Origin: Oxynema aestuarii AP17
GTDB taxonomy: Bacteria; Cyanobacteriota; Cyanobacteriia; Cyanobacteriales; Laspinemataceae
Direction: 5' to 3'
Assembly (NCBI RefSeq): GCF_012295525.1
Contig: NZ_CP051167.1
Location: forward strand, 5,685,299 to 5,749,298
DNA length: 64,000 nucleotides
How positions within the stretch are numbered: the stretch's first letter is position 1; each line of letters begins with the position of its first letter. A model generated the notes under the pieces. The model was not told the origin of the DNA, searched no databases, and saw nothing but the letters and a program-made list of their open reading frames with translations. Both the position numbers and the translations under genes were made by a program. Shown here piece by piece: positions 19,064 to 56,326 of this stretch.

Positions 19064-19136
19064 TGGAGAATAGGAGATTCGAACTCCTGACCTCTGCGGT
19101 GCGATCGCAGCGCTCTACCAACTGAGCTAATTCCCC
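19064..19136 (-). tRNA. tRNA-Ala (anticodon CGC)
   Basis: A 73-nt cloverleaf folded by hand: acceptor GGGGAAT/ATTCTCC with the G3:U70 Ala identity pair, D-arm GCTCAGTTGGTAGAGC, anticodon loop AUCGCAC, T-arm GGAGTTCGAATCTCC. CCA is not encoded. Confidence 0.85.
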
Positions 19137-22902: not shown

Positions 22903-23479
22903 TCGTTACATAAGTTAACCCACTTTGGGACGGGAAATATCGTTTTCGGGAAAAATCGTTTGGGAGGGAAAGGGAGTCCGAAGCGGGTGGGGAGTGGCAA
23001 GAGGGAAAATGGGGTATCGATGGAAAATACAGGCGATCGCCCTCACCATCCCGATAGTTTAAAGGGAATTTGGCAGCGAACCAAATCGGGATCGGTGGAG
23101 GATTGAATCACAAAGACGAGTCCAGTTGTTGCAGCAAGAGGGCTTCTTTGGGGGGTTTCCCGTTCGAGGATGGGGTTGCGCCGGATCGATTCAGGAGCTA
23201 AATCAAGGCCGAATCGCTTGTAGGCCGTGCTTTTCGGCGATCGCCATTCCCGCTCAAATGCCCGATGTTGCTCGAACGCCATCGATGGAGGTTGACCCGA
23301 TCTTTTGACATTTTAGCTAACTTGCGATCCGCCGATCGCCCCGGGGATTGCGATTGCGTCTTAGGGAGTGGCGATCGTGTTTTATAATGATAATTTAGAT
23401 AGTTTTGATAATAAATTCGACAGGCGATCGACAACATAATTTTAATGGCAATAGCGATCGCGATACAGGAGTTCAATCA

Positions 23480-23638
23480 ATGGCCGACCATAATACCGAC
23501 AAAAATCCCAAAGATCGAGATCCGAATCAACCTGCCAGTCAAATGACGCGCTTGAGTAATCGTACTCCACGTCCCCGCCCTGTGGGTTCCAACAACAATC
23601 AAGATGCGGAAAAAGATTTAATGGGTTATATCGACTAA
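23480..23638 (+). CDS. Small hypothetical protein (52 aa), strongly hydrophilic and probably disordered, no Cys
   Basis: SD AGGAG 8 nt upstream of ATG. A perfect palindrome (AAGTGGGCGATCGGCGATCGCCCACTT) follows the stop. There is no homology I can recognise. Confidence 0.3.
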   Translation: MADHNTDKNPKDRDPNQPASQMTRLSNRTPRPRPVGSNNNQDAEKDLMGYID

Positions 23639-23641
23639 AGT

Positions 23642-23732
23642 TTAAACGATGAAGTGGGCGATCGGCGATCGCCCACTTCTCAAATTTAATGCTTAAATCA
23701 TAGGGCGATCTTTTCATGAGGCGATCGCCCTT
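23642..23732. terminator. Two palindromic hairpins between convergent genes (small ORF on + strand, GT1 gene on - strand)
   Basis: AAGTGGGCGATC/GATCGCCCACTT and AGGGCGATC...GATCGCCCT, both seen in sequence. Flanking U-tracts are weak. Confidence 0.35.
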
Positions 23733-23734
23733 AT

Positions 23735-24742
23735 TTATCGACTTAACTTTTTTCGCAACTTATCGACTATCCCCCGTCCCCAGAGTTTCATCATTCGCCA
23801 TCGGGTCAATTCGGGAATGGTGGAACTCCACTGGTGACGACTATCAAAAAACTCGTTAATTTCTTCCAAAATTACTCGCAAGCGATTAAGAATATTATCC
23901 GTGCGGTATTCGGCGAGTAAAGATTCATCGAATAAGTTGGGATCGGGCTTTTCCAACACCCTTAAAATTCTTTGAATGTCGTAATCTGGAGAATATCCGG
24001 CAATTTTATAACTGTTAAATCCCGGATCGAGATAATCCGAAAGCCCACCATTAATGCTGGAGAAAACATAACAGCCACAGGCGATCGCCTCCAAGGGTTG
24101 CAATCCAAATCCCTCGCTGACCCCTTGTAATGCCCAATATTGAGCGGAATCGTAAAGATAAATTTTAGCGCGATTGAACAATCCCGGCAAATCTTCAATG
24201 TAGGAATTCACCACAAAAACATGACATTGTTTTTGCAAAGCTGGAACTAATCGATCGAGCAAATAATCGGAAGATTTACGCGCCTGTACTAAGACATCGA
24301 TATCGCGATCGCAGTTAAAATTTTTAAATTCATCGCCGATTTGATTGGGTAAATAATAAATTAAATTATGGGGTGCTTTTTGTCCCCAATATCCCATGGT
24401 ATTGCGGCTAACTGTAATAATAGGAATATGAGCGGGAATGTGGAAGCCATACCCGGCACTATGAGCGTGATAAATGACGGGATATCCTCGGAGGCGATCG
24501 GCCAGTTTGGCAACATCGAAGCCCCAACTCATGACAAAAATAATCTTATTTTTGATATCGGTTAAACTCGGATCTTTTAAAAGATCGTCCAAAAAAATAC
24601 GGTCTTTTTCTCGCTGTCGATAAGTAACAATTTCCGCCGGACAAATATGTTTGGCGAGATTAAAGGTTTTTAATTCTGCCCACAACCCACCGCAGGCAAA
24701 TTGACCAGTAGTTCCGGGTACTAAAAAATAGAGTTTTCTCAC
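23735..24742 (-). CDS. Glycosyltransferase family 1 (GT-B fold)
   Basis: C-terminal GT1 motif EGFGLQPLEAIACGCYVFSS. AT-rich coding sequence. GTG start. Confidence 0.7.
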   Translation of the reverse strand: MRKLYFLVPGTTGQFACGGLWAELKTFNLAKHICPAEIVTYRQREKDRIFLDDLLKDPSLTDIKNKIIFVMSWGFDVAKLADRLRGYPVIYHAHSAGYGFHIPAHIPIITVSRNTMGYWGQKAPHNLIYYLPNQIGDEFKNFNCDRDIDVLVQARKSSDYLLDRLVPALQKQCHVFVVNSYIEDLPGLFNRAKIYLYDSAQYWALQGVSEGFGLQPLEAIACGCYVFSSINGGLSDYLDPGFNSYKIAGYSPDYDIQRILRVLEKPDPNLFDESLLAEYRTDNILNRLRVILEEINEFFDSRHQWSSTIPELTRWRMMKLWGRGIVDKLRKKLSR

Positions 24743-24920
24743 AGTTTTTTACAGACTTTTTTGGGGTTAGTCCAACTAAAGTAGTTTACATTTAATTGAA
24801 TATAGCAATTCTCAGTTTGGCGAAATTCATCGCTATTTTAGTGGATTTCCGTTCCCATGGGAATGACAAATTAAGTAGATTTACTTATGATAAAAAAGGA
24901 TATAGAACCAGTTGCAATAA

Positions 24921-26270
24921 CTATATTCGCTTTGCGAAAATTACATAATCGTCAAGGGTATAGTGTGAATTATAAGCAAGGTTTAAATATTTAGTTTTTA
25001 GGGGATTAAGATAAGTTTGCAGGGGGAGATGATTGGATGCAAAATTGTAAAAATTTTTTATTTTAGTTCGGCTACCTGTTGACGTTAAATATTTATACCA
25101 TTCAAGACGAAGACCTAAATTTTCTAGAAATTCAACGATAAGTGTTTGTTCTTTTTTTATATCTTTATTTTGATTTACAATGAAATTTTGAGATTTAAAT
25201 AATTTACTTTTTTGAATAACCAACACGACTTTACCATTACTTTTTAAGCAATTTTCAATTATTTTACTATAAGCTTTATAGGATCTTTCTCTAGATTGAA
25301 GATCGCTGAAAAAACAATGGGAAATAAAAACAAAGTCAAAAAAGTCTCGTGGGAGTTTTTCTAAAAAATTTTCGTAATCGAAAATATTGGCAGTATCGAA
25401 GCGGAAATAAGTATTGGGAGGTTGAGGATGAGATTCGAGATAACGCCGCCAAAACTGGAAACCCCGATATTGTAAGTTAGCTTGAGCTTCTAAAGAATAA
25501 TAAGAAATATGAAATAGTGGATTTTGCAAAAATTGATGACTGCTTTGTAAGAATAACGCCAACCCATAAGCTACTGTACCCGGTCCGGCAGCCAGATCGA
25601 GAACATTAAAATTAGTGGGTAACAGTCCAGCTTGATAAATCAAAAACCATACTAAATAGTTACAGTAAACATTTTCTGCAAAATATTTCAGCAAATAGAC
25701 ATCAGGAGTGAAATTAAATGCGTATTCGGGATCGATTCCCTTTTTAAGCTTTTCCAGATCTTCGATCGCTTTTTGAATCTCTTCACGTTTCTTGGGAGTC
25801 GAATTTTTCTTAAATGCTTCGGTTAAAAACAAAGACAACTCATGTTCAAATCGATCGAAAACTGTTCGATCGATTCCCGTTACTTGCAATTTTGCGCGAT
25901 CGTGTTCGACCACATGAAAACTATTGGTAATAAAATCAATTAAATTAGAGTCTGGGGTTAAAAGTCCACGAGCATCCGTATTGTCAAAAAGCTGTTCGAG
26001 TTCTAAAAAATTAACCTTTTGACGAAATTCGATAACTTCTTGTTTAAGTTTTTTAATTTCTTGTTTGGCATCTTCTAACTCGGTTTCAGCTTGTTTCTTT
26101 TTGTTAAGTAATTTGGCAATTCCCGATATCGGACTCTTCTGGATCTTGAGCTTGGCTAATCGTCGTTCGGCAAGATCGAAGTTGTTATTATTGAGTGCGG
26201 TAATCACATACAGGGAATTCCACCAGTTTTTAATCAGTTCAATCATAGCCAAATCCAGAGGCGCCCTCAA
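24921..26270 (-). CDS. Hypothetical protein: N-terminal Lys/Glu-rich coiled coil plus C-terminal class I SAM-methyltransferase-like fold
   Basis: Motif I-like NVLDLAAGPGTVAYGLALFL followed by the hydrophobic and acidic blocks expected of a Rossmann-type MTase. Heptad-like KQEIKKLKQEVIEFRQK. ~35% GC. Confidence 0.5.
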   Translation of the reverse strand: MRAPLDLAMIELIKNWWNSLYVITALNNNNFDLAERRLAKLKIQKSPISGIAKLLNKKKQAETELEDAKQEIKKLKQEVIEFRQKVNFLELEQLFDNTDARGLLTPDSNLIDFITNSFHVVEHDRAKLQVTGIDRTVFDRFEHELSLFLTEAFKKNSTPKKREEIQKAIEDLEKLKKGIDPEYAFNFTPDVYLLKYFAENVYCNYLVWFLIYQAGLLPTNFNVLDLAAGPGTVAYGLALFLQSSHQFLQNPLFHISYYSLEAQANLQYRGFQFWRRYLESHPQPPNTYFRFDTANIFDYENFLEKLPRDFFDFVFISHCFFSDLQSRERSYKAYSKIIENCLKSNGKVVLVIQKSKLFKSQNFIVNQNKDIKKEQTLIVEFLENLGLRLEWYKYLTSTGSRTKIKNFYNFASNHLPLQTYLNPLKTKYLNLAYNSHYTLDDYVIFAKRI

Positions 26271-27150
26271 ATACTTCTACATCAGATAAGAGAGATTTGA
26301 GCTTTTCCTTAAAGCTGTGATAATGCATGGCCTCTTCATTATACCACCATTGATACTTGTCAATGATATCTAGCGCTTGTTGACGGGTTCCCGCAACGAG
26401 CGATCGCTCACTAAATTGGTGAAAGGGTTGAATCACCACACGATCTACTGTTTGAAGCTGATGTATGAACTGGTTTCGATCTTCTGGAAAAGTAGGCAAT
26501 AAGGGAGTAATCGTTACGGAGAAACGACTATCATATTCTTCATTGCACGGAATATTATGTTTTAAAAAACCGATCGCGCGCAGTCTAGCTTTAATACTGG
26601 GCGAACGTCCTTCAAAATCCCTTCTCACTCTTTCGCTTCCCGTTGGAATACTCATATTAATCCGAATCCGTTTAAACTTCCGGAGGAGATCGAGATCGCG
26701 AACGATCATGGGGGTACGGGTTTGAATGACTAAAGTCGGCTGGTATTTAATCATGATTTCCAACAAACTTCGCGTCAATTTCTTTTTGGTTTCAATAGGT
26801 TGGTAAGGATCGGTTACCGTACTCATATAGATACTGGGCGGGCGTTCGGGATGGTTATTTGCCCATTTTTGTAATTCTTTTTCTAAAAGAGTGGCGGCAT
26901 TTTTTTTAACCATCGCCCAATTTCCCCAATTTTCCCGCATTTTTGAATTAGGGCTAAAGGCGGCAGCATAACAGTAAGTACAACCATACTGACAGCCTTT
27001 ATAAGGATTTAAAGTAAAGTCATAAGCTTTGATAAATCCACTCGCTTTGTTGAGTATAGATTTGGCTTCTATAGATCGAATGGTTGTATTTCCTAATTTT
27101 TCTTCTTGAGGGTCATCAGAATGGGTTGAAAGATTCCGATCGTGAACCAT
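26239..27150 (-). CDS. Radical SAM protein of the spore-photoproduct-lyase (SPL/COG1533) family
   Basis: CQYGCTYC triad preceded by AYDFTLNPYKG, the typical COG1533 N-terminus. SD AGGAGG lies 5 nt before ATG 27150 and inside the 3' end of the upstream GST gene. AT-rich. Confidence 0.7.
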   Translation of the reverse strand: MVHDRNLSTHSDDPQEEKLGNTTIRSIEAKSILNKASGFIKAYDFTLNPYKGCQYGCTYCYAAAFSPNSKMRENWGNWAMVKKNAATLLEKELQKWANNHPERPPSIYMSTVTDPYQPIETKKKLTRSLLEIMIKYQPTLVIQTRTPMIVRDLDLLRKFKRIRINMSIPTGSERVRRDFEGRSPSIKARLRAIGFLKHNIPCNEEYDSRFSVTITPLLPTFPEDRNQFIHQLQTVDRVVIQPFHQFSERSLVAGTRQQALDIIDKYQWWYNEEAMHYHSFKEKLKSLLSDVEVFEGASGFGYD

Positions 27151-27153
27151 CAC

Positions 27154-28089
27154 TTATCCTCCTGTTGCAGTTCCGAAGCGATCGCGATCGTGAGGGTGGT
27201 GCAGTTGGGTGATGTCCGGTCCGGAGGGAATAATCCCGCCGGGATTGAGAGGAAATAAATTACCGTAATAGTCCCGTTTGACTTGCTCTAGATCGCAGGT
27301 CTCGGCAACCCCTGGAAGTTGATATAAATCGCGTAAATACGATCCGAGATGAAGATAATCTTGGATGCGGCGGCGATTGCATTTAAATAAGCTATAGTAG
27401 ACAATATCAAAACGGAATAAAGTTGTAAATAGACGCACGTCGGCTAAAGTGAGGCGATCGCCGCATAAATATCGCCGTTCTTCCAAAGTGCGATCGATCC
27501 GGTCGAGCATCGAAAACAGTTCCTCGCAGGCGCGATCGTAAGCGATTTGAGTTTGGGCAAAACCGCAGCGATAAACTCCATTATTCACCGCATCATAAAT
27601 CTGCTCGTTCCAGCGATCGATTTCGGTTTTTAATTCCGACGGATACAGATCTAGTTCGGGATGCTTTGCAAAGTGGTTAAATTCGGCATTGAGCATCACG
27701 ATAATTTCCGAACTTTCGTTATTGACGATCGCCCGTTTTTGCTTGTCCCATAAGACCGGAACCGTCGATCTGCCGTCGTATCCCGGTTTCGCTAACCGAT
27801 AGAGTTCGGGCAAGCTTTGGCAACCTTCCTGGGGAGTTTCAAACACCCACATGCCATCGTTAGGGGAAGGAACGACCAGACCGACAGAAATCGCATTCTC
27901 TAACCCTTTTAAAGCGCGAACGACTAGGGTTCGATGAGCCCAAGGACATCCCATTCCCACGAATAATTGATAACGTCCTTCGGCGGGAGGATGGGGATTG
28001 TCCGGTTCGGTGCCAATAGTTTTTCGGAATTGACTTTGCGGACGGATGTAAGCCCCGGATTTATCCGACGGCGCCATATTAGACATCAT
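27154..28089 (-). CDS. Xi-class glutathione S-transferase / glutathionyl-hydroquinone reductase (YqjG/ECM4-like)
   Basis: CPWAHRT active-site motif with the RYQLFVGMGCPWA context. GST C-terminal domain. Start chosen at the internal MM (28089). The ORF track extends to 28161. Confidence 0.8.
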   Translation of the reverse strand: MMSNMAPSDKSGAYIRPQSQFRKTIGTEPDNPHPPAEGRYQLFVGMGCPWAHRTLVVRALKGLENAISVGLVVPSPNDGMWVFETPQEGCQSLPELYRLAKPGYDGRSTVPVLWDKQKRAIVNNESSEIIVMLNAEFNHFAKHPELDLYPSELKTEIDRWNEQIYDAVNNGVYRCGFAQTQIAYDRACEELFSMLDRIDRTLEERRYLCGDRLTLADVRLFTTLFRFDIVYYSLFKCNRRRIQDYLHLGSYLRDLYQLPGVAETCDLEQVKRDYYGNLFPLNPGGIIPSGPDITQLHHPHDRDRFGTATGG

Positions 28090-28164
28090 GGTTTGCCAGA
28101 GGGTCGTCCAGACAAATTTTCCGAGTCGGATAATAGGGGTGGGGGGAAGGGCGAACAGCATGGG

Positions 28165-28213
28165 TTTTAGGATTTTAGAGTTTAGAGTTTAGATTTTAGA
28201 GTTTAGATAGAGA
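28165..28213. repeat. STRR-like heptanucleotide tandem repeat, (TTTAGAG/TTTAGAT)n, ~6 units
   Basis: Seen in sequence in the divergent intergenic region between the GST gene and dnaN. Confidence 0.7.
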
Positions 28214-44240: not shown

Positions 44241-47200
44241 ATGTTCTTTTCTCTTGACGGCTACCAAGTCCTCGAATTAGTTTCTGAAACTGCAGCCTCG
44301 AAAGTTTATCGAGGCATCCGAGAAGACGATCGCACCCCAGTCGTCCTTAAACTTCTCAACAGCGAATATCCCACCCCCATTCAGTTAAAACGATATCGAC
44401 GAGAATATGAAATCCAAAAGAAATTAACCGGGGAAAAGATTTGTCAGGCGATCGCGCTTGAAGAATATAAAAACACCCTGATATTAATTTCTGAAGATGC
44501 AGGCATCTGTTTAAAACATCTCCTCAAGCGAGAACCGTTAACTTTGACGGAAAAGCTCGAAATAGCGATCCAAATTTGCGAGGCATTAGCGGAGGTCCAT
44601 CGAGCTAATATTATTCATAAAGACATCAATCCTTTTAATATCGTTGTCAATTCTGAAACTCGCAAAGTAAAGCTGATTGATTTCGGGATTGCAACTGCTT
44701 TAACCCGAGAACATCCCACCCTCAAGAATCCTACAATTTTAGAAGGAACGTTACCTTATATTTCTCCCGAACAAACCGGGCGGATGAATCGATCTTTAGA
44801 CTATCGTAGCGATTTTTATTCCTTCGGGATCGCCTTATACGAAATGTTTTCGGGACGAGTTCCTTTTGAGAGTGACGATGCGTTAGAGTTGGTTCACTGT
44901 CATATTGCTAAACCGCCGACCCCTTTAGATCGCCTAGATTGGGGGGACTCTGGTGATTTTCCCCAACCCTTGAGCGAGATCGTCATGAAATTGCTCGCGA
45001 AAAATGCGGAAGAACGGTATAAAAGTGCGTGGGGAATTCAAGCAGATTTAGCAGAATGTTTGGAACAACTCAAGGCGACCAATAGGGTTCGACCATTTGC
45101 TTTAGGGAAAAAAGATATTTCCGATCGCTTTGAAATTCCCCAAAAGCTTTATGGGAGAGAAAAAGAACTAGAAAGGTTATTAAAAGCTTTTTTTGATGTA
45201 GCTTCCACGCCAGAAGAACGGGGCGATCGCCAATCGGCTCGAACGAAATTGATTGTTGTTGAAGGATATTCTGGGGTAGGTAAATCTTGTTTAGTCTTAC
45301 AACTTTATAAACCCATTACTCGCCGTCGCGGTTATTTTATTTCGGGAAAATTCGATCAATTTCAGCGCAATATTCCCTATTCGGCGGTCGTTAGTGCTTT
45401 TCAGCAATTAGTCCGACAGTTGTTAACAGAAAGTGAAGCAGAATTAAAACGCTGGCGAGATAAAATACTGGCGGCGATCGCCCCCAACGCTCAAGTGATT
45501 GTCGATGTTCTTCCCGATATTGAAAAAATTATTGGTAAGCAGCCCCCAGTCGCCGAAGTGGGGGCGTCAGAAGCCCAAAATCGGTTTAATTTAGTCTTTC
45601 AAAACTTCATTCGGGCATTTTGCGATCGCGACCATCCCCTGACTATTTTTCTCGACGATTTACAATGGGCCGATTTAGCCAGTCTCAAATTGATCGAGTT
45701 AATGATGAGCGACGATCGTACCGAATATTTATTACCGATTGTTTCGTATCGAGAAAATGAAGTCGATGCTACACATCCGGCGATCGTTACCATTGAAAAA
45801 CTGCGTCAACAAGGGATTGAAATCGAGCAGATAGCCTTACAACCTTTGGATAAAGGCGCGATCGCTCAATTAGTAGCCGACACCTTACAGCATCCTGTTG
45901 AAAGAGTAGAAAGCTTAGCAAAATTACTGTTGCAAAAAACGGAAGGAAATCCATTTTTTGTCAATCAGTTTTTACAAACATTATATACAGAAGGCGCTAT
46001 TTTTCTAGATCTCCAGACTCATCAATGGCAGTGGGATGTTGCCGAGATCGAGCGCATGGATATTGCCGAAAATGTCGTTGAATTAACGGTAAAAAATTTA
46101 AAAAAATTACCCGAACTCACTCAAAAAGTTCTCCATCTTGGTGCTTGTCTCGGGTCGGAGTTTGATTTAGATACTCTGGCTACGATCGATCGCCAATCGA
46201 CTCAAGAACTCTTCAATCTCTTACTTCCTGCCGTAGAATCGGGTAGTGTTTTAACCCACAGCGATCGCGAAGAACGTCCCCGTCAAATCTATCAATTTGC
46301 TCACGATCGCATTCAACAAGTCGCCTACAATTCCTTTGAGGAAAACTACACGAAAAATATTCACTTGCAAATCGGTCGTTTTCTCTTGGAAGAAACCCCT
46401 CAAGAGAGTTTGCATGAAAATATTTTCGCGATCGCCGATCATTTTAATTTTGCTAAAGAACGAGTTATCGATTGTAACGAAATTGAAATGATAGCGAAAC
46501 TGAACTTGATGGCTGGAGAAAAGGCGATCGCCTCGACGGCTTATCCTGCAGCTTTAAATTATTGTCAAAAGGCGATCGATTGTCTGAGTGATTCTTGCTG
46601 GGAAGCACAATACGATCTGACCCTAACACTTTATACGAAACTCACCAAGGCGGCATTCTTATGCGGTCAGTTTGACAACGTAGAAAAATTTGCACGCATA
46701 GTTATCGATAACGCCAAGAATCCCTTCGATACCGTGCAAGTGTACTACATTAAAATTGAAACAGGAATGGCTCAAAATCAACTACAAAAAGCCATTCAAA
46801 TTGGTTTGAGCATTCTCAAAAAATTGGGAGTTGATTTTGGAGAAAATCTCGAAGCCATTGACGTGACTCAAAGTCTCGAAAATATTAACCGTCGATTGGC
46901 AAATATCGAACCCGAAAGCCTGCTCGATTTGCCGATCTTAGAAGATCCCCAACAATTGGGAATTCTGGAAATTCTCACTATTGTATCTCCTTGTTCTTTT
47001 ATTACAGCTCCTCAATTATTTATTGCCATCATTTGTAAGCAAATTGAAATTTACTTAGTCGCGGGAAATGCTATAAGTTTCGCTCCCACCACTTACGCAT
47101 TTTATGGATCGATTTGCTGTGGAATTCTGGGGGATGTAGAACGGGGTTATCAATTTGGTAAGCTGGCTATCAATTTAATTGATAAGTTTCACTTAGAAGC

Positions 47201-50096
47201 ACAACGAGCTAAAGTTGCAGTCATTTTTAATGCCACAACGGCTCACTGGAAAGATTCAGTCCAATCGAGCATTCAATCTTTGGTTGAAGCTTACAATATC
47301 GGACAACAAACCGGGGATTTACAATTTGCCGCCCATGGTTTGTATAATGCAGAGTTAGCGGCTTATATGAGTGGATCGCCTTTGCCGGAGTTGCTGGAAC
47401 GGATGGATCGCACGAACAAAATTATGGTTCAACTGCGGCAAAAAACTTTATTAAATTATCATTCAATTCACCATCAATCGATTCTCAATTTACTGGGAAA
47501 TGCTAAAGAAGAAAACCCAGAAGATAACAATACTCCACCCTGGATGTTACTCGGTTCGACGTATGACGAGCGAGAAAAGTTTAGCCTGCACGAGCAAGCC
47601 AAAGATTTGACGGGATTAGTCCATTTTTATTTAGCAAAAACCTTTCTGTTTTATTTATTTGAACAATTCGATCGCGCCCGTGAATTTGCGGAAAGGGGGC
47701 GTCAATCTTTAAGTGGGGTGACCGGACTGCTTTGCGGTTCCGTTTTTCAGTTTTACGAGGTTTTAGCCTATCTCGCATTTTACCCCCAAGCTTCGCCCGC
47801 CGACGGTCCCAGTTTACTCCAAAAAGTCGATGAAGCTCTGGCTAACTTTAAACGCTGGGGAGAACATGCGCCGTCAAATTACTTGCATAAATATTATCTC
47901 ATTAAAGCAGAAAAATATCGCGCGATCGGCGATCCGCTCAAGGCGATGGAAGCTTTCGATCGCGCGATCGAAATTGCGCGAAAATGCGCCTACTTGCACG
48001 AAGAGGCGATCGCCTACGAACGGGCCGCTCATTTCTATCTCGAATTGGGACGAGAAATGATTGCAAAAACTTACTTTTCTCAAGCTTATTATACCTATTT
48101 ACGCTGGGGAGCGATCGCCAAAGTACGAGATTTAGAAAGTCGCTATTCTCAATTTATCGCTCAAACTTCTACAAGTTCGACCCGTACTGTATCGACAAAA
48201 ACGAGCGTTCATACCTCTACCAGTACTGGATCGGGAAGCTCCCTCGATTTGGCGACAGTGATGAAAGCCTCTCAAGCTATTTCTGGAGAGATTCTCCTCG
48301 ATCGCCTCCTCGAACAATTGATGACAATTGTGATGGAAAATGCAGGAGCGCAACGGGGTTATTTAATCTTAGAAAGAAACGAAAAATTCTTTATTGAAGG
48401 GCGCGCCGAACTCGACTCCGTAACTGTTTTAGAATCTCTTTCTTTCGACGATCGCCTACCCATTTCTGTTATTAATTACGTCATTCGGACTCATGAAATA
48501 GTTGTAAAAACAAATGCATTTGAAGCCGGACAGTTCACCAACGATCCCTATATTCAAACTCATCAAACTCAGTCGATGTTATGCGCGCCCTTGCTCGATC
48601 GCGGACAGTTGACCGGGTTAATTTATCTGGAAAACAACTTAACTCCCGGCGCTTTTACCCCAGAACGCATCGAACTGTTACAACTACTTTCCGGACAGGC
48701 GGCGATCGCGATTGCCAATGCCAAACTGTACCAACAAGTCCGCGACAACCAACAACAACTTACCCAGTTTCTCGAAGCGATTCCCGTCGGTATTTTTATT
48801 AGCAATTCCCGAGGTCAATCCTACTATGCCAACCGCATCGCTCAAGAATTAATGGGGCGGGGAATTGCGCCGGAAGCTTCTTTAGAAGAATGGCCCGACG
48901 TCTATCAAATTTATTTAGCCGATAGCAATGCCAAATGCTCTATAGAAAATCTGCCGATCGCCAAAGCTTTAAGTGGCAAAACAATTAAAGTTGACGATTT
49001 AGAAATTGCTCATCAAAATCGACGAGTTCCTATTGAAGTTTTAGCAACGCCAATCTACGACGAACGGGGAAATTTAAACTACGCGATCGCCGCTTTTCAA
49101 GATATTAGCGAACGCAAACAAGCCGAAAAATTACTCGCCGAATACAATCGGACTCTCGAACGACAAGTCGCCGAACGCACCCAAGAACTACAACAAACTC
49201 TCGAATACTTGCAAGCGACCCAACAAGAGTTAATTCAATCGGAAAAAATGGCGGCTTTAGGCCAACTCGTTGCGGGAGTAGCTCACGAAATCAATACCCC
49301 CCTCGGTGCGATTCGTTCTAGTGCGGGCAATATGGGTAAATTCCTCAATCAAAGCCTCGAAGATTTACCCGGAATTTTACAATCCCTTTCTTCAGAAGAA
49401 ACTCGTGAATTCCTCAATTTGCTACGTCGTTCGTTGGAACAAGAAAATACACTTTCTGCACGAGAAGAACGCAAAATCCGCCGCAGTTTAATCCGCGAAC
49501 TCGATGCAGAAAATATCGAAAACAGTACCCACTTAGCCGATACCCTTGTCGATATGGGAATTTACGATAATATCGGCGAACTTTTACCCTTATTTCGACG
49601 GGAAAACAGCGATAAAATTGTCGATCTGGCCTACAAGCTTTCCGGGCTGCAAAAAAGTACGGCTCGTATCGAAATGGCGACGGAACGCGCCTCAAAAGTC
49701 GTGTTTGCACTAAAAACCTACGCTCGTTACGATAGTAGTGGGGAAAAAACGACGGCCAGCTTGAGCGAAAGCATCGAAACGGTTTTGACGTTATATCACA
49801 ACCAACTCAAACATGGAGTCGAAGTCATCCGCAATTACCAAGATCTGCCGCCGATTTGGTGTTATCCGGACGAACTCAATCAAGTCTGGACGAATCTCAT
49901 TCACAATGCTTTGCAAGCGATGAATTATCGAGGTCGATTATGGCTGACGATTGCTCGCTGCGGCGGCGAAGCGAAAGTTTCGATTACAGATAACGGTTGT
50001 GGGATTCCTGCGGAGGTCTTGCCGAAAATTTTCAATCCTTTTTTCACGACCAAACCCGCAGGAGAGGGGAAGCGGTTTGGGACTCGATATCGTTAA
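44241..50096 (+). CDS. HstK-type hybrid sensor: Ser/Thr-kinase-like domain - P-loop STAND/AAA ATPase - TPR-like helical region - GAF - PAS - HisKA - HATPase_c; 3' end frameshifted
   Basis: Kinase subdomains ([20 protein letters not shown]). Walker [12 protein letters not shown] ([16 protein letters not shown]...[18 protein letters not shown]). PAS. H-box [21 protein letters not shown]1 boxes. A 1-nt insertion near 50068-50072 stops the frame at 50096; the remaining G2 box and C-terminus continue in the +1 frame to 50196. Confidence 0.8.
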
Positions 50097-50425: not shown

Positions 50426-53400
50426 GTGTTGGTTCTTGAAGGTTATCAGATTCTCGAAAAAATTTGTGAAAGTGTTGCATCTACGGTCTACCGAGGCATC
50501 CGAAAAACCGATCGCCGCCGCGTTATTTTAAAAGTTCTCAATAGTGAATATCCTACCCCAATTCAACTCAAGCGATATGAAAGAGAATATGAAATACTCC
50601 AACTCTTTGATACGGCATCAGTTTGCCAAGCTCTCGGTTTACAAGCCTATGAAAATACCCTCGTCCTCATTATGGAAGATGTGGGAATTTCACTCAAAGA
50701 ACTTATCAAAACATCCCCATTAACTTTAGACGATCGCCTCAGATTAGCGATTCAAGCGTGCGAGGCGATCGGACAGATCCACGCGGTTCACGTCATTCAT
50801 AAAGATATCAATTCTTCCAACCTTGCTGTCAATCCGGAAACCGGAGAATTGAAGGCGATCGATTTCGGTTTGGCGACGGTTTTAACTCAAGAACATCCGA
50901 TCCTTAAAAATCCTTCCATTTTAGAAGGAACTTTAACTTATATTTCCCCCGAACAAACCGGACGGATGAATCGCTCTCTAGACTATCGCAGCGATTTTTA
51001 TTCTCTGGGCGTCACCTTTTACGAACTGTTTTCGGGACGAGTTCCTTTTGAGAGTGGCGATGCTTTAGAGTTGGTTCACTGTCATATTGCTAAAACGCCG
51101 AAACCGTTGTGCGAACTAGATGCGATCGCCGATGGCAAACCGATCCCCGAAGCTATTTCTAAGATCGTGATGAAACTGCTGGCAAAAAATGCAGAAGAAC
51201 GCTATCAAAGTGCTTGGGGGATTAAAGCCGATCTCGAACGCTGTGCGGCGCAATTGCAAGAAAACGGATCGATCGAACCCTTTTCCATCGGTCAATTTGA
51301 CTTATCCGATCGCTTCCATATTCCGCAAAAACTTTACGGTCGGCAAGTTCAAATTCAACAATTACTAGATACTTTTGAGCGAGTTGCAACTCCGAATAAT
51401 TTTCAAGCTCATATTACCTTTATCACCGGATATTCTGGAATTGGTAAATCCGCCCTCGTCGCCGAACTCTACAAGCCAATTACCGCGCGACGGGGCTATT
51501 TTATTACGGGTAAATTCGACCAATTTCAACGCAACATTCCCTATTCGGCAGTCGTACACGCCTTCAAACAGTTGGTGAAATACCTGTTAACTGAAAGTGA
51601 AGGACAGTTATCTCAATGGCGCCAAAAATTACTGACAGCGTTGGGAACGAACGCGCAACTCATCGTCGATGCGATTCCCGAACTCGAAACAATTATTGGC
51701 CCACAGCCGCCCGTTCCCGATCTGGAGCCGTCCGAAGCCCAAAATCGCTTTAATTTTGTCTTTCAACATTTCATTCGGGTGTTTTGTTCTCCGGAACATC
51801 CGTTAACGATCTTTCTCGATGATTTGCAATGGGCCGATTCGGCGAGTTTGCACGCGATCGAGTTGATGTTGTCCGATCTCGAAACACGACATCTATTTAT
51901 TATCGGTGCCTATCGCCATCAAGAAGTGGGGGCGACTCATCCACTGCGGACGACTTTAGAAACTCTGGAAAAAGAAGGGGTTCCGATCGCCAATATTCAT
52001 CTCAAATCGTTGAAGTTAAATCAAATCGCCCAACTGATTGCCGATACTTTACACGACGATGCCGAAGCGGTCAGACCGTTAGCGAAATTGACCTTACAAA
52101 AAACCGGGGGGAATCCCTTTTTTGTCAGTCAATTTTTGAAAACGTTACACGAAAAAGGGGCGATCGCTTTCGATTGCGATCGCCACAGTTGGCAGTGGGA
52201 TCTCAAGCAGATTCAACAGACCAAAATTGCCGATAATATTGTCGAACTCACCCTCGAAAACCTCAAAAAATTGCCGCCGCTTACCCAAGACTTGCTCAAA
52301 ATGGCCGCTTGTCTCGGTTCTAGCTTCCAAACCCAAACCCTGGCGCTGGTGAGCGATCGCCCGGAAGCGGAGATCGGACGGGAGTTGATGAGTGCGGTCC
52401 GTTCGGGGGCGATCGCCACCACGTGCGAATTCGACGATCGCGGCTACATTCGCGAGTATCAATTCACTCACGATCGCGTGCAGCAAGCAGCTTATGCCTC
52501 GATCGCCCCTCGGGAACGTGCGGCCATGCATTTGAAAATCGGGCGGTCTTTGTGGCAGCATACGGACAATTTAGCCGAAAATCTGTTTAAAATCGTCGAT
52601 TGTCTCGATTTTGGCGTCGATTCGATTCACGATCGCCACGAACGGGAACGGGTGGCGGAACTCAACGCGATCGCCGGAGAGAAAGCCAAAGCCGCCAATG
52701 CTTACGCCGCCGCGATCGGCTATTTTAACGTGGGACTGCAATTACTCAGTACCGATGCCTGGGAGCAATCTTACGATCTCACCTTGCGACTCTACCGCGA
52801 AGCTGCCGAAGTCGCCTATTTAGCCGGAGACTACGATCGCCTCGAAGAATTGGCGGACATCGTCTGCGATCGCGCTCGCACCTTGCTCGATCGCATTAAA
52901 GTATATGAAGTGCAAATCGAAGCCTATAAAGCCCGAGGTCAAAACCGCGAGGCGATCGCGATCGCCCGTCCCCTCCTCCAGCAATTGGGTTTCGACCTTC
53001 CCGAAGCGCCGACTCCGGAACAAATCGGTGACGTTCTCGAAACCACGGCTCGATGCTGGCGCGATCGCGGCGTCGAGAGCTTACTAGACCTACCGCCGAT
53101 GCGCGACCCGGAACATCTCGCCGTTATGAGGATCGCCAACCGCCTGTTTGCCCCCATTTTTATCACCGTTCCCACCCTATTACCCGTGCTGGTGGGCAAA
53201 CAAGTTCAGCTCTCGATCGCCCACGGCAATGCACCATCTTCGTGCTACGCCTACGTCAATTACGGCTTAATTTTGTGCGGAATCGTCGGTGAGATCGAGA
53301 TCGGCTATCAATTCGGTCAGTTAGCGCTCAAATCGATCGACCCTCCCAATATGGCACAATATACCGCTCAAGTGCGCGGCCCCTTCCACGCGGGGATCGC

Positions 53401-56326
53401 GATCGGCAAAGAGCATTTAAAAGACTCCCTCGCCCCCCTGCGTGCCGCCTACCAAAAAGGGTTGGAGTTTGGGGACTTGTATTATGCAACTACCTGCGCT
53501 TTTGTATACAGTCTCCACGGCCTTTTTTCCGGGGTCGAACTCGATCTCCTCGACTCACAAATCGCCGCCTATCGCGACGCGATCGCCCAACTGCAACAAA
53601 CCACGACTTTAATTTATACATCGATTTACCACCAAACCCTTTTAAACTTAGTCCATCCGAGCGAAACCCCCTGGAAGTTCTGCGGCGATGCTTTCGACGA
53701 AGGCCAGCAATTAGCCGCCATTGTTGAAACGAACGATCGCTATGCCCTTTGCGCGTTCTACATCCATAAACTCTTCCTCGCTTACTTGCTCGACGGCTCG
53801 ACTGACTTGAGCGAGCTACTCGAAAACAGCGCCGAATATTTAGACGGAGCCACCGGAACCCTGTTAGTGCGCCTGTTCCATTTTTACGGCGCTTTAACTC
53901 GTTTAAAACTCTATCCATCGGCAACAGAACAACAACGACAAGTACACCTCGAAGCCGTCGAATTGTCCTGTCAAAAATTACAAAATTGGGCTAAATTTGC
54001 GCCGATGAACTACGCCCATAAATATCATCTCGTCGTGGCGGAACGGGCGCGAGTTTTGGGAGAAAAAATCGAGGCGATCGAACATTACGATCGCGCGATC
54101 GAACTGGCGCGCCAACATCAATATCTCAACGAAGAAGCCCTCGCCAACGAACGAGCCGCCCTCTTTTATCAAGGGTGGGGTAAAGCGAAAATTGCCCGGG
54201 TCTATCTCGCCGAAGCTTACTATGCCTATCAACGTTGGGGCGCGATCGCCAAAGTCAAGCAATTAGAACGACAGTATCCCGACTGGATCGATTCGTCAAC
54301 GGGGATAGCACCTCGCCTCGGCGTCAACACGACCACGACCCACCATTCCACCGCCACCGAATCGATTAAAGCATTAGATTTCGCCACCTTTATGAAAGCC
54401 TCTCAAGCCATTTCCGGCGAAATCATTTTAGAAAAACTACTCGTCGAACTATTAAAAATTCTCCTGGAAAATGCCGGGGCGCAAGTCGGCTATTTAATTT
54501 TAGAAACTGACGGGGAACTGCTCGTACAAGCGCGCGGGGAACGAGAAGGGGAAGATATCGCCGTTTTGGAAGCGTTACCGTTGGGCGATCGCCTGCCTCA
54601 ATCGGTAATTAACTACGTCGTTCGCACCAAAGAAACGATCGTCAAAACGAATGCGACTCGGGAAGGAAAATTTACCAACGATCCGTACATCCAAACCCAT
54701 CAAATCCAGTCGATGCTGTGTGCGCCCTTGCTCGATCGCGGGCAGTTAACTGGGTTAATTTATCTGGAAAATAACTTAACCCCCGGCGCTTTTACCCCGG
54801 AACGAGTCGAACTGTTGCAATTACTATCTTCCCAGGCGGCGATCGCGATCTCCAACGCCAAACTGTACCAACAAGTGCGCCAAAATCAACAACAACTCAC
54901 CCAATTTCTCGAAGCGATTCCCGTCGGCGTTTTCGTCGTCACCGCCCAAGGAGAACCCTTTTACGCCAACCGACGCGCCCAAGAAATCCTCGGACAGGGA
55001 ATTATTCCCCAAACCCAAAGCGATCGCCTCGGGGAGGTCTATCAAACTTACGTCGCCGGAACCGATCGCCTCTATCCCAACGAACGCAATGTCGTCCTAC
55101 GCGCCTTGAAAGGAGAAACCGCCACCATAGACGACGCCGAAATTCACCAACACGGGAAAATTATCCCCATCGAAGCCTCCTGCACCCCGATTTACGACGG
55201 CGACGGTAAAATTGTCTACGCGATCGCCGCGTTTCAAGATATCACCCAGCGCAAACAAGCGGAACAATTACTCGCCGAGTACAACCGCACCCTGGAACAG
55301 CAAGTCGCCGAACGCACTCAAGAATTACAGCAAACCCTCGAATATCTGCAAGCCACTCAGCAAGAACTGATTCAATCGGAAAAAATGGCCGCTTTAGGCC
55401 AACTCGTCGCCGGAGTCGCCCACGAAATCAATACGCCCCTGGGCGCCATTCGCTCCAGTGCGGGCAATATGGCCAAATTTCTCAATCAAAGCTTGGAAGA
55501 ACTACCCGGGATCTTCCAATCCCTCTCCCCGGAACAAACCCGGGAATTCCTGGATCTGTTGAGTCGTTCCCTGCAACAAGAAAACACCTTGTCCGCCCGC
55601 GAAGAACGCAAACGGCGGCGCGCCTTAGTCGGCGAACTCGACGCACGATCCATCGAAAATAGTACCCATCTCGCCGATACCCTCGTGGATATGGGGATTT
55701 ACGAGAATATCGACGAATTTTTCCCGTTATTTGAACGTCCCGACAGTCCCCACATCGTCGATCTCGCCTACAAACTGTCCGGACTGCAAAAAAGTACGAC
55801 CCGCATCGAAATGGCGACGGAACGCGCCTCGAAAGTGGTGTTTGCGCTCAAAACCTACGCCCGTTACGACAGCAGTGGCGAAAAAATGGCCACGGATTTG
55901 AGTGAAAGTATCGAAACGGTTTTGACCTTATATCACAACCAGATCAAACACGGGGTCGAAGTCGTCCGCGATTACGAAACTTTGCCCCCCATTCCGTGTT
56001 ATCCGGACGAACTCAATCAAGTTTGGACGAATTTGGTTCATAACGCCTTACAGGCGATGGACTATCGCGGTACTCTGACCGTGGCGATCGCCCGGGACGG
56101 CGATCGGGCCAAAATTACCATTGGCGATAGCGGACCGGGAATTCCCGAGGAGGTCTTACCGAAAATCTTCAATCCCTTTTTCACGACCAAACCCCCCGGC
56201 GAGGGTAGCGGTTTGGGACTCGATATCGTCAATAAGATCGTGCAGAAGCATTCCGGTAAGATTGAAGTGGAAACTCGACCGGGTTCGACCTGTTTTCATG
56301 TTTTTCTTCCTTTAGAGCCGCATTAG
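50426..56326 (+). CDS. HstK-type hybrid sensor, intact paralogue (Ser/Thr-kinase-like - STAND ATPase - helical - GAF - PAS - HisKA - HATPase_c)
   Basis: Same architecture as the upstream gene. Complete G2 box [31 protein letters not shown] lies 9 nt before GTG 50426. Confidence 0.85.
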   Translation: MLVLEGYQILEKICESVASTVYRGIRKTDRRRVILKVLNSEYPTPIQLKRYEREYEILQLFDTASVCQALGLQAYENTLVLIMEDVGISLKELIKTSPLTLDDRLRLAIQACEAIGQIHAVHVIHKDINSSNLAVNPETGELKAIDFGLATVLTQEHPILKNPSILEGTLTYISPEQTGRMNRSLDYRSDFYSLGVTFYELFSGRVPFESGDALELVHCHIAKTPKPLCELDAIADGKPIPEAISKIVMKLLAKNAEERYQSAWGIKADLERCAAQLQENGSIEPFSIGQFDLSDRFHIPQKLYGRQVQIQQLLDTFERVATPNNFQAHITFITGYSGIGKSALVAELYKPITARRGYFITGKFDQFQRNIPYSAVVHAFKQLVKYLLTESEGQLSQWRQKLLTALGTNAQLIVDAIPELETIIGPQPPVPDLEPSEAQNRFNFVFQHFIRVFCSPEHPLTIFLDDLQWADSASLHAIELMLSDLETRHLFIIGAYRHQEVGATHPLRTTLETLEKEGVPIANIHLKSLKLNQIAQLIADTLHDDAEAVRPLAKLTLQKTGGNPFFVSQFLKTLHEKGAIAFDCDRHSWQWDLKQIQQTKIADNIVELTLENLKKLPPLTQDLLKMAACLGSSFQTQTLALVSDRPEAEIGRELMSAVRSGAIATTCEFDDRGYIREYQFTHDRVQQAAYASIAPRERAAMHLKIGRSLWQHTDNLAENLFKIVDCLDFGVDSIHDRHERERVAELNAIAGEKAKAANAYAAAIGYFNVGLQLLSTDAWEQSYDLTLRLYREAAEVAYLAGDYDRLEELADIVCDRARTLLDRIKVYEVQIEAYKARGQNREAIAIARPLLQQLGFDLPEAPTPEQIGDVLETTARCWRDRGVESLLDLPPMRDPEHLAVMRIANRLFAPIFITVPTLLPVLVGKQVQLSIAHGNAPSSCYAYVNYGLILCGIVGEIEIGYQFGQLALKSIDPPNMAQYTAQVRGPFHAGIAIGKEHLKDSLAPLRAAYQKGLEFGDLYYATTCAFVYSLHGLFSGVELDLLDSQIAAYRDAIAQLQQTTTLIYTSIYHQTLLNLVHPSETPWKFCGDAFDEGQQLAAIVETNDRYALCAFYIHKLFLAYLLDGSTDLSELLENSAEYLDGATGTLLVRLFHFYGALTRLKLYPSATEQQRQVHLEAVELSCQKLQNWAKFAPMNYAHKYHLVVAERARVLGEKIEAIEHYDRAIELARQHQYLNEEALANERAALFYQGWGKAKIARVYLAEAYYAYQRWGAIAKVKQLERQYPDWIDSSTGIAPRLGVNTTTTHHSTATESIKALDFATFMKASQAISGEIILEKLLVELLKILLENAGAQVGYLILETDGELLVQARGEREGEDIAVLEALPLGDRLPQSVINYVVRTKETIVKTNATREGKFTNDPYIQTHQIQSMLCAPLLDRGQLTGLIYLENNLTPGAFTPERVELLQLLSSQAAIAISNAKLYQQVRQNQQQLTQFLEAIPVGVFVVTAQGEPFYANRRAQEILGQGIIPQTQSDRLGEVYQTYVAGTDRLYPNERNVVLRALKGETATIDDAEIHQHGKIIPIEASCTPIYDGDGKIVYAIAAFQDITQRKQAEQLLAEYNRTLEQQVAERTQELQQTLEYLQATQQELIQSEKMAALGQLVAGVAHEINTPLGAIRSSAGNMAKFLNQSLEELPGIFQSLSPEQTREFLDLLSRSLQQENTLSAREERKRRRALVGELDARSIENSTHLADTLVDMGIYENIDEFFPLFERPDSPHIVDLAYKLSGLQKSTTRIEMATERASKVVFALKTYARYDSSGEKMATDLSESIETVLTLYHNQIKHGVEVVRDYETLPPIPCYPDELNQVWTNLVHNALQAMDYRGTLTVAIARDGDRAKITIGDSGPGIPEEVLPKIFNPFFTTKPPGEGSGLGLDIVNKIVQKHSGKIEVETRPGSTCFHVFLPLEPH

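Follow-up and report, generated by a model that had tools for sequence, protein, structure and literature searches.

An AT-rich region of the Oxynema aestuarii AP17 genome and the overlapping radical SAM and methyltransferase-like genes it shares with other cyanobacteria

The AT-rich locus and its conserved gene pair

We analyzed a stretch of 64,000 nucleotides from the genome of Oxynema aestuarii AP17 (contig NZ_CP051167.1, positions 5,685,299 to 5,749,298 of the forward strand), hereafter called the window, whose own numbering is used throughout, and in it an AT-rich region at positions 23735-27153. This region holds three genes on the minus strand, which follow a gene for an Xi-class glutathione transferase (GST) and code, in this order, for a radical S-adenosylmethionine (SAM) enzyme (rSAM), a methyltransferase-like protein with a coiled coil (protein X) and a glycosyltransferase (GT1). 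An earlier note on this DNA, made from the letters alone, had taken the three genes for recently acquired DNA. Our analysis points instead to resident cyanobacterial DNA: it is fairly probable that the region is no recent import and that its core, rSAM-X, is an old, vertically inherited two-gene operon whose products work by the mechanism proposed below. The gene families named in the earlier note (Xi-class GST, Radical_SAM, Glycos_transf_1, and methyltransferase-like with a coiled coil) agree with our domain scans and structural model.

The rSAM and X genes overlap by 8 nt. The start codon of X (ATG, 26246-26244) lies inside the last codons of rSAM, and the stop codon of rSAM (TGA) occupies 26241-26239. 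The longer overlap of 32 nt that had been reported is an artefact of a TTG at 26270, which is merely the start of the longest open reading frame (ORF) of X; ATG 26246 is the start chosen by gene callers in other Oxynema genomes. Relatives were sought in one genome per GTDB species, which gave 219, and 80 loci were fetched for neighborhood counts. By tblastn, an rSAM orthologue with 56-68% identity lies directly upstream of X in 77 of the 80 species loci, and the remaining three are accounted for by a contig end or by a clade with insertions between rSAM and X. The exact 8-nt overlap, TATGAnTAA/TGA, is present in 70 of 77 loci analyzed, the window's included, and spans Nostocales, Oscillatoriales and Pleurocapsales. 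Its exceptions are mainly relatives of Okeania and Dapis (L011, L017, L020, L021, L044 and L084), in which 300-2800 bp are inserted. GST and GT1, in the same survey, adjoin the pair only in Oxynema records. The triad is thus not the unit that had been suggested, and only rSAM and X travel together.

The pair is widespread among cyanobacteria. We found 479 homologues of X at E ≤ 1e-3, and every named one is cyanobacterial, as are all named ones among 20 divergent representatives of the X clusters, most of them filamentous. Among the best 120 matches listed, one has 98% identity (Oxynema) and the others 44-52%. Orthologues of rSAM (56-69% identity), X (43-49%) and GT1 (61-69%) occur in many cyanobacterial genomes that carry the octamer HIP1. 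A neighbor-joining tree of rSAM and X follows taxonomy: the Nostocales are monophyletic, Microcoleus/Kamptonema, Okeania/Dapis and Coleofasciculaceae/Xenococcaceae form distinct groups, and Oxynema stands on its own branch beside a Cyanophyceae metagenome-assembled genome (MAG).

Table 1. Features of the GST-rSAM-X-GT1 locus in window coordinates, with GC content and GC content at third codon positions (GC3); SPL, spore photoproduct lyase.
Feature	Position	Strand	GC	GC3	Basis and remarks
Xi-class glutathione transferase / glutathionyl-hydroquinone reductase (GST)	27154..28161	-	0.494	0.496	Pfam GST_N_2 and GST_C_2
Shine-Dalgarno-like AGGAGG	27158..27163	-			inside the GST 3' end, 7 nt upstream of rSAM ATG 27150
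Radical SAM enzyme (rSAM), 303 aa	26239..27150	-	0.410	0.372	Radical_SAM; cyanobacterial subfamily of the COG1533 'SPL family'
8-nt rSAM/X overlap ATGATTGA	26239..26246	-			sequence reading; same overlap in 70/77 loci
Protein X, 441 aa	24921..26246	-	0.339	0.290	methyltransferase-like with coiled coil
X-GT1 spacer, 178 bp	24743..24920	-			weak terminator-like hairpin over the X stop (24938-24926); promoter-like site 24863-24835
GT-B glycosyltransferase (GT1), 335 aa	23735..24742	-	0.415	0.394	Glycos_transf_1, GT4-like

Upstream of the pair, the junction between GST and rSAM is as tight as first described, with a Shine-Dalgarno-like sequence inside the GST 3' end and a gap of 3 nt between the GST stop codon (TAA, 27156-27154) and the ATG of rSAM. 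The GST translation contains the motif GCPWAHR with the CPWA active site, and it matches the structures PDB 4uss (E 4.5e-88) and YqjG 3r3e (E 6.8e-78). Given this active site and the strong similarity to solved structures of glutathionyl-hydroquinone reductases (GHR) and YqjG, GST is assigned by sequence to the Xi-class/GHR enzymes. It is a resident neighbor and the first gene of the likely transcription unit, divergent from dnaN. The divergent intergenic region between GST and dnaN contains a perfect tandem duplication of the 16-mer GATTTTAGAGTTTAGA with a spacing of 21 (28171-28207), which may be a regulatory element.

Downstream of the pair, X and GT1 are separated by a spacer whose hairpin and promoter-like site come from a consensus scan, in which overall counts were no higher than in shuffles. 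GT1 would probably form a separate or only partly read-through unit. Its product matches Pfam PF00534 (E 1e-10, 41.9 bits, cutoff 26.4) and reaches no specific NCBIfam equivalog. We found 16 metagenomic orthologues of GT1 at 61-69% identity, all on HIP1-bearing contigs, with housekeeping genes such as ferrochelatase, CorA and adenylosuccinate lyase for neighbors; none of the 16 is near rSAM, X or GST. GT1 is therefore best classed, from its sequence relatives, as a conserved cyanobacterial gene unrelated to the pair.

The two proteins of the pair

The radical SAM motif CX3CX2C of rSAM (C53/C57/C60) is invariant in the family alignment, as are the motifs SVTDPYQP and LVIQTR, and mean column identity is about 70%. 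With this motif and a Pfam PF04055 score of 44.9 bits against a gathering cutoff of 29.5, rSAM classes as a member of the radical SAM superfamily. It stays below the NCBIfam cutoffs for PA0069 (123.4 of 360 bits), Rv2578c (94.3 of 430) and radical SAM mobile pair B (92.8 of 410), and no sporelyase model is among its NCBIfam matches listed at E ≤ 0.1. An identity as SPL proper (SplB) was considered and rejected, because identity is 13% and no SPL equivalog is among those matches. By these scores, rSAM is best placed in a separate cyanobacterial subfamily of the same broad group as PA0069, Rv2578c and mobile pair B; we know of no function for these non-SPL families. rSAM also matches the phage protein family phrog_13321 (E 4.6e-35) and, faintly, DUF5131, so that COG1533-type radical SAM genes are evidently present in phages as well.

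The AF2 model of protein X (pLDDT 76) opens with a conserved N-terminal helix (NWW..S). A coiled-coil arm covers about aa 41-88 and a helical adapter about aa 100-205, and about aa 206-441 form a class I SAM-methyltransferase domain of seven strands. Motif I reads VLDLAAGPGT in Oxynema X and LDxAAGPGT in the family (D217, G221, G223). This motif shows little or no variation, as do the acidic E253 that closes beta2 and the motif FDFxxISHCFF after beta4, and SAM binding by X is therefore likely, as far as conserved residues can tell. With a glycine-rich motif I after beta1 and an acidic end of beta2, X has the defining features of the class I SAM-methyltransferase fold. It has no Pfam, NCBIfam, PADLOC or PHROG match. 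By sequence, the X family is compact: a search of 1.84 billion proteins gave 140 representatives at E ≤ 1e-3, of which about 35 are full length. Its remote tail includes a protein above the Pfam Rsm22 cutoff, to which the X profile aligns at 96% hhalign probability and over the pre-Rossmann helices as well.

The coiled-coil arm varies from about 40 aa in Oxynema X to about 290 aa of repeats elsewhere. In P0317, P0309 and P0306 (517-687 aa), the arm is expanded by tandem Q/E-rich repeats, and in P0317 the post-beta4 ISHCFF is altered to VFHRLF. A fusion of rSAM and X as the origin of the long members (500-687 aa) was ruled out, since their extra length is expanded coiled coil.

Among the closer X members with a name at NCBI, most are called 'photosystem II assembly protein'; those at greater distance go under 'hypothetical' or 'class I SAM-dependent methyltransferase'. 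No experimental basis for the photosystem II (PSII) name was found in the literature on Sll0606, Slr2013, slr2012 and Slr0286. Sll0606 is unlikely to be X, as the literature presents it as a protein of hydrophobic-ligand or transport type that has a homologue in Chlamydomonas, and slr2013 is described as the end of the mnh/mrp operon. No Synechocystis homologue of X was retrieved, either in a homologue search with a Microcoleus-like query or among the 20 divergent cluster representatives, and the literature on Anabaena alr3664-3666 held nothing relevant. Slr0286 (Kufryk and Vermaas 2001) may be the source of the PSII name.

Base composition and origin of the region

The region has a GC content of 0.377 compared with 0.498 for the window and is its lowest 3.4-kb stretch; sliding GC is 0.275-0.43 over 23.6-27.2 kb, with the minimum of 0.275 at 25.0-25.4 kb. 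The earlier note had described a drop from about 50% to 35-38% exactly at 27154. The dip itself stands, but the sharp step does not, because GC changes gene by gene, from GST (0.49) through rSAM (0.41) to X (0.34), then back over GT1 (0.415) to 0.47-0.52 beyond. Among 39 window ORFs (mean GC3 0.545, standard deviation (sd) 0.10), X has the lowest GC3. Several further window genes reach GC3 values of 0.38-0.41, which leaves X as the sole clear outlier. Elsewhere in the window, the plus strand has two neighboring giant ORFs (44241-50096, 1951 aa, and 50426-56326, 1966 aa), the first with a GC3 of 0.40.

HIP1 octamers were also said to be nearly absent from the region. The window contains 171 of them, which marks it as cyanobacterial, and is enriched in them about 175-fold. 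By raw density the region is indeed poor: 9.5 octamers would be expected and 3 are seen (P=0.015), and no HIP1-free gap in the window is longer than the one at 24305-26400 inside it. Used as independent evidence of acquisition, however, this scarcity fails. When the 175-fold enrichment of the window is scaled by local base composition, 2.6 octamers are expected in the region and 3 are seen, and since HIP1 is itself GC-rich, the raw depletion adds nothing beyond the GC dip. Composition-adjusted counts of CGATCG (11 seen, 11.0 expected) and GATC (29 seen, 32 expected) behave in the same way. The AT-rich region carries the host HIP1/CGATCG/GATC signature in full. Two of the HIP1 sites are in the GT1 gene. 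Just downstream of GT1, at 23651-23679, there is a 29-nt perfect palindrome centred on HIP1, GAAGTGGGCGATCG-C-CGATCGCCCACTTC, which falls within a doubtful 91-aa ORF (23442-23717) and is kept in the other Oxynema records.

Low GC accompanies these genes in other hosts too. In 69 of 71 loci X has a lower GC than its flanks, by 7 points on average and by up to 13, and the same is true of rSAM in 62 of 71 (mean -2.8 points). Of 16 GT1 orthologues, 14 fall short of their flanks by 2 GC points or more. The GC3 of X is below that of flanking ORFs in 55 of 55 loci, and in 31 of the 55 X is the lowest ORF of the locus. Almost everywhere, X ranks first or close to first in AT content among the genes around it. 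As X, rSAM and GT1 are AT-shifted in nearly all hosts, their AT-richness is a trait of the gene families and no mark of foreignness. The shift of X at synonymous sites persists in all 55 genomes despite purifying selection.

Within the genus, the arrangement GST-rSAM-X-GT1 is common to three Oxynema genomes, and two metagenome contigs as well as Oxynema sp. CENA135 repeat the order from dnaN through these four genes. Both O. aestuarii AP17 and Oxynema sp. CENA135 fall in the clusters of X and rSAM formed at 90% identity, and rSAM is 100% identical to RMH78850.1, a protein of the MAG "Cyanobacteria bacterium J007", which comes from Jinata hot spring and is assigned to Oscillatoriales. Synonymous divergence (dS) of the three AT-rich genes is 0.054-0.094, about the same as or slightly higher than in dnaN and GST (0.040-0.067), and dN/dS is 0.07-0.23 over all five genes. 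Relaxed selection or decay as the cause of the AT-richness is ruled out by the dN/dS of the AT-rich genes (0.10-0.18) and their intact ORFs in three genomes.

Signs of mobility were sought by several routes. No integrase or transposase ORF lies between dnaN and GHL10 in the window by ORF translations and domain scan, and the region has no flanking direct repeats beyond chance or HIP1-based matches. The sole RNA gene in the window by Rfam and ARAGORN is a tRNA-Ala(CGC) on the minus strand (19064-19136); at 4.6 kb from the region, it marks no island boundary. Rfam and defence-system scans gave nothing relevant to the region. Of the features that define an island, we thus found deviant composition; there was no lost oligonucleotide signature, no mobility hallmark and no patchiness or incongruence, the patchiness test having covered the Oxynema records and the gene tree. 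In CENA135, a gene for an IS605-family TnpB (OrfB_IS605, Cas12f1-like_TNB) lies about 700 bp downstream of GT1 (L085 11213-12478). Metagenome contig L001 ends in sequence that matches the beginning of this TnpB insertion, and the window is without the element.

On balance, we favor a tendency of the gene families toward low GC, amplified by the wide GC3 spread of Oxynema (sd 0.10), as the rather likely cause of the AT-richness. Some observations weigh against it. The GC3 deficit of Oxynema X is -0.27 (0.29 compared with about 0.55), while the minimum in other genomes is -0.18. Relative to the cross-species regression, Oxynema X lies about 4 residual sd below and rSAM about 2.6. The Oxynema proteins are the most divergent of the sample, with a mean X identity of 45.7% compared with at least 48.0% in the others (mean Oxynema rSAM identity is 62.0%), and their root-to-tip distance is 0.245 compared with 0.214 ± 0.019. 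The size of the Oxynema deficit is not fully explained.

These same observations, a GC3 deficit larger than in any other of the 56 genomes (z of about -4 in X and -2.6 in rSAM) and the most divergent sequences of the sample on a long branch, would fit an old xenologous replacement, in which an Oxynema ancestor took rSAM-X, perhaps with GT1, from an unsampled AT-rich cyanobacterium, and the transferred genes have since gained the host HIP1/GATC signature but kept their low GC. The lineage-specific site behind GST, as opposed to the common site upstream of ureD, would fit it too. We nevertheless regard such a replacement as unlikely. The Oxynema pair nests in no sampled clade, and no closer donor exists among 5.8 billion proteins, where the next-best matches are 49% for X and 69% for rSAM. 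Moreover, the host oligonucleotide enrichment is fully equilibrated, other window genes are also at GC3 0.38-0.41, and every other host shows an AT bias in this direction, which can thus be explained without a foreign origin.

A recent island in which GT1, the methyltransferase-like gene and rSAM form a joint defence, stress or surface-modification module is highly improbable: it agrees with the lowest GC of the window, with few HIP1 octamers by raw density and with the weak similarity of rSAM to phage families (phrog_13321) and its faint DUF5131 and viperin matches, but all three genes are conserved in cyanobacteria and under purifying selection in three Oxynema genomes, the triad does not occur outside Oxynema, orthologues of GT1 have housekeeping genes around them, X and GT1 are kept apart by a 178-bp spacer with a terminator-like hairpin, mobility hallmarks are lacking and the HIP1 depletion is gone after composition correction. 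The earlier suggestions of recent acquisition and of a defence or stress role are thus not borne out. PADLOC defence models gave no significant match for any of the three proteins (rSAM weak only, at E 0.002-0.03; none for X or GT1).

Proposed function and comparison with known systems

From the conservation, coupling, folds, SAM-binding motifs and composition pattern demonstrated above, we infer complex formation, chemistry and substrate as follows. The near-invariant 8-nt overlap implies translational coupling and, probably, a stoichiometric complex, and rSAM and X are most likely a translationally coupled pair of SAM-dependent modification enzymes with a macromolecular substrate. Coupling would make the two proteins in fixed proportion, probably as a complex. 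In it, rSAM would use its [4Fe-4S] cluster and SAM to abstract a hydrogen from an unreactive carbon of the substrate, while X, as an Rsm22-like subunit, would bind the substrate, dimerize through its coiled coil and probably methylate the substrate. In Oxynema, this pair has come to lie directly behind the Xi-class GST and in front of the unrelated, conserved GT1. Closest in structure are SPL, which acts on DNA, and RSM22/METTL17, which act on small-subunit rRNA, and a nucleic acid is therefore the favored substrate by analogy, with rRNA or tRNA preferred over DNA.

Against this proposal stand several results. None of 18 X-family members matches Pfam Rsm22 (PF09243) at E ≤ 1, which makes X at best a distant relative, and the X family reaches no Pfam methyltransferase threshold. 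The PSII-assembly label and the frequent ureDAB neighbors point to a protein or metallocentre role instead.

It is possible, though doubtful, that the pair is a two-enzyme system restricted to cyanobacteria (mostly filamentous and pleurocapsalean) that installs or repairs an undescribed modification on rRNA, tRNA, DNA or a metallo-enzyme such as urease or photosystem II; the persistent AT-richness of the pair would then reflect a regulatory constraint.

The main functional rival, a role of the pair on a protein or metallo-enzyme, is improbable in our assessment; the pair might modify its target after translation by radical-SAM/methyl chemistry, or help to assemble urease or photosystem II. Protein modification is a well-known activity of radical SAM enzymes, methyl-coenzyme M reductase being one example of a target, and Mmp10 and MgmA are among the fold matches. 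Most of the closer X members bear the PSII-assembly name. In addition, 43 of 76 loci have ureD-ureA-ureB behind X in the same orientation, with ureC where the locus reaches that far, and in 23 of the 43 the distance is no more than 100 bp. These ure-linked loci fall in several orders and include Nostocales, Microcoleus, Oscillatoria PCC 10802, Allocoleopsis and Potamolinea (e.g., L003 7356-8951). This adjacency could be a functional link or old synteny. On the other hand, Oxynema keeps the pair with no urease genes in the 64-kb window, the closest folds are DNA- and rRNA-directed, and the source of the PSII label was not found in the literature searched. Co-regulation with nitrogen or urease genes through NtcA is likewise unsupported, as NtcA-like sites upstream of rSAM are not enriched (9 loci, compared with 8.0 ± 2.7 in shuffles).

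If the pair is indeed such a cyanobacterial two-enzyme system for an undescribed modification, this would be the first function for a non-SPL member of COG1533 and for a bacterial Rsm22-like protein. A function for the pair would annotate about 500 X clusters at 90% identity, all named ones cyanobacterial, and would inform the large COG1533 radical SAM group beyond spore photoproduct lyase. The leads of interest are the conserved pair itself, the strict overlap of the two genes, their AT bias and the link to the urease operon. The locus also carries a caution: where a gene family is intrinsically AT-rich, low GC together with an uncorrected HIP1 count can look like an island, and HIP1 density should serve as evidence only after correction for base composition.

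Compared with compositional genomic islands, the Oxynema region is alike in being a local GC minimum with deviant GC3. It differs in having no mobility genes, tRNA or att repeats, in keeping the host HIP1/GATC signature, in being syntenic within the genus and in having orthologues that are AT-shifted in nearly all hosts.

Among known enzymes, SPL (SplB; PDB 4fhc/4fhd) and the COG1533 'SPL family' share the fold of Oxynema rSAM, which differs from SPL in its 13% identity, its non-spore-forming host and its methyltransferase-like coupled partner; to our knowledge, such a coupled partner is no feature of SPL. RSM22/METTL17 (PF09243), methyltransferase-like assembly factors of the mitochondrial small ribosomal subunit, may be distantly related to the catalytic and adapter domains of X. 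X differs from them in the lack of a Pfam Rsm22 match, in its variable N-terminal coiled-coil arm, in its radical SAM partner and in a known distribution that is cyanobacterial only. METTL17 has a four-cysteine Fe-S site, which is not kept in the X family, where only one cysteine is invariant. The syntheses of diphthamide and wybutosine are two-step pathways of a radical SAM enzyme and a methyltransferase. Like rSAM-X as proposed here, Dph1/2 with Dph5 (diphthamide) and TYW1 with Trm5/TYW3 (wybutosine) combine a radical SAM enzyme and a SAM-dependent methyltransferase on one macromolecular target, but they have no sequence relationship to rSAM and X, whose genes overlap in one operon.

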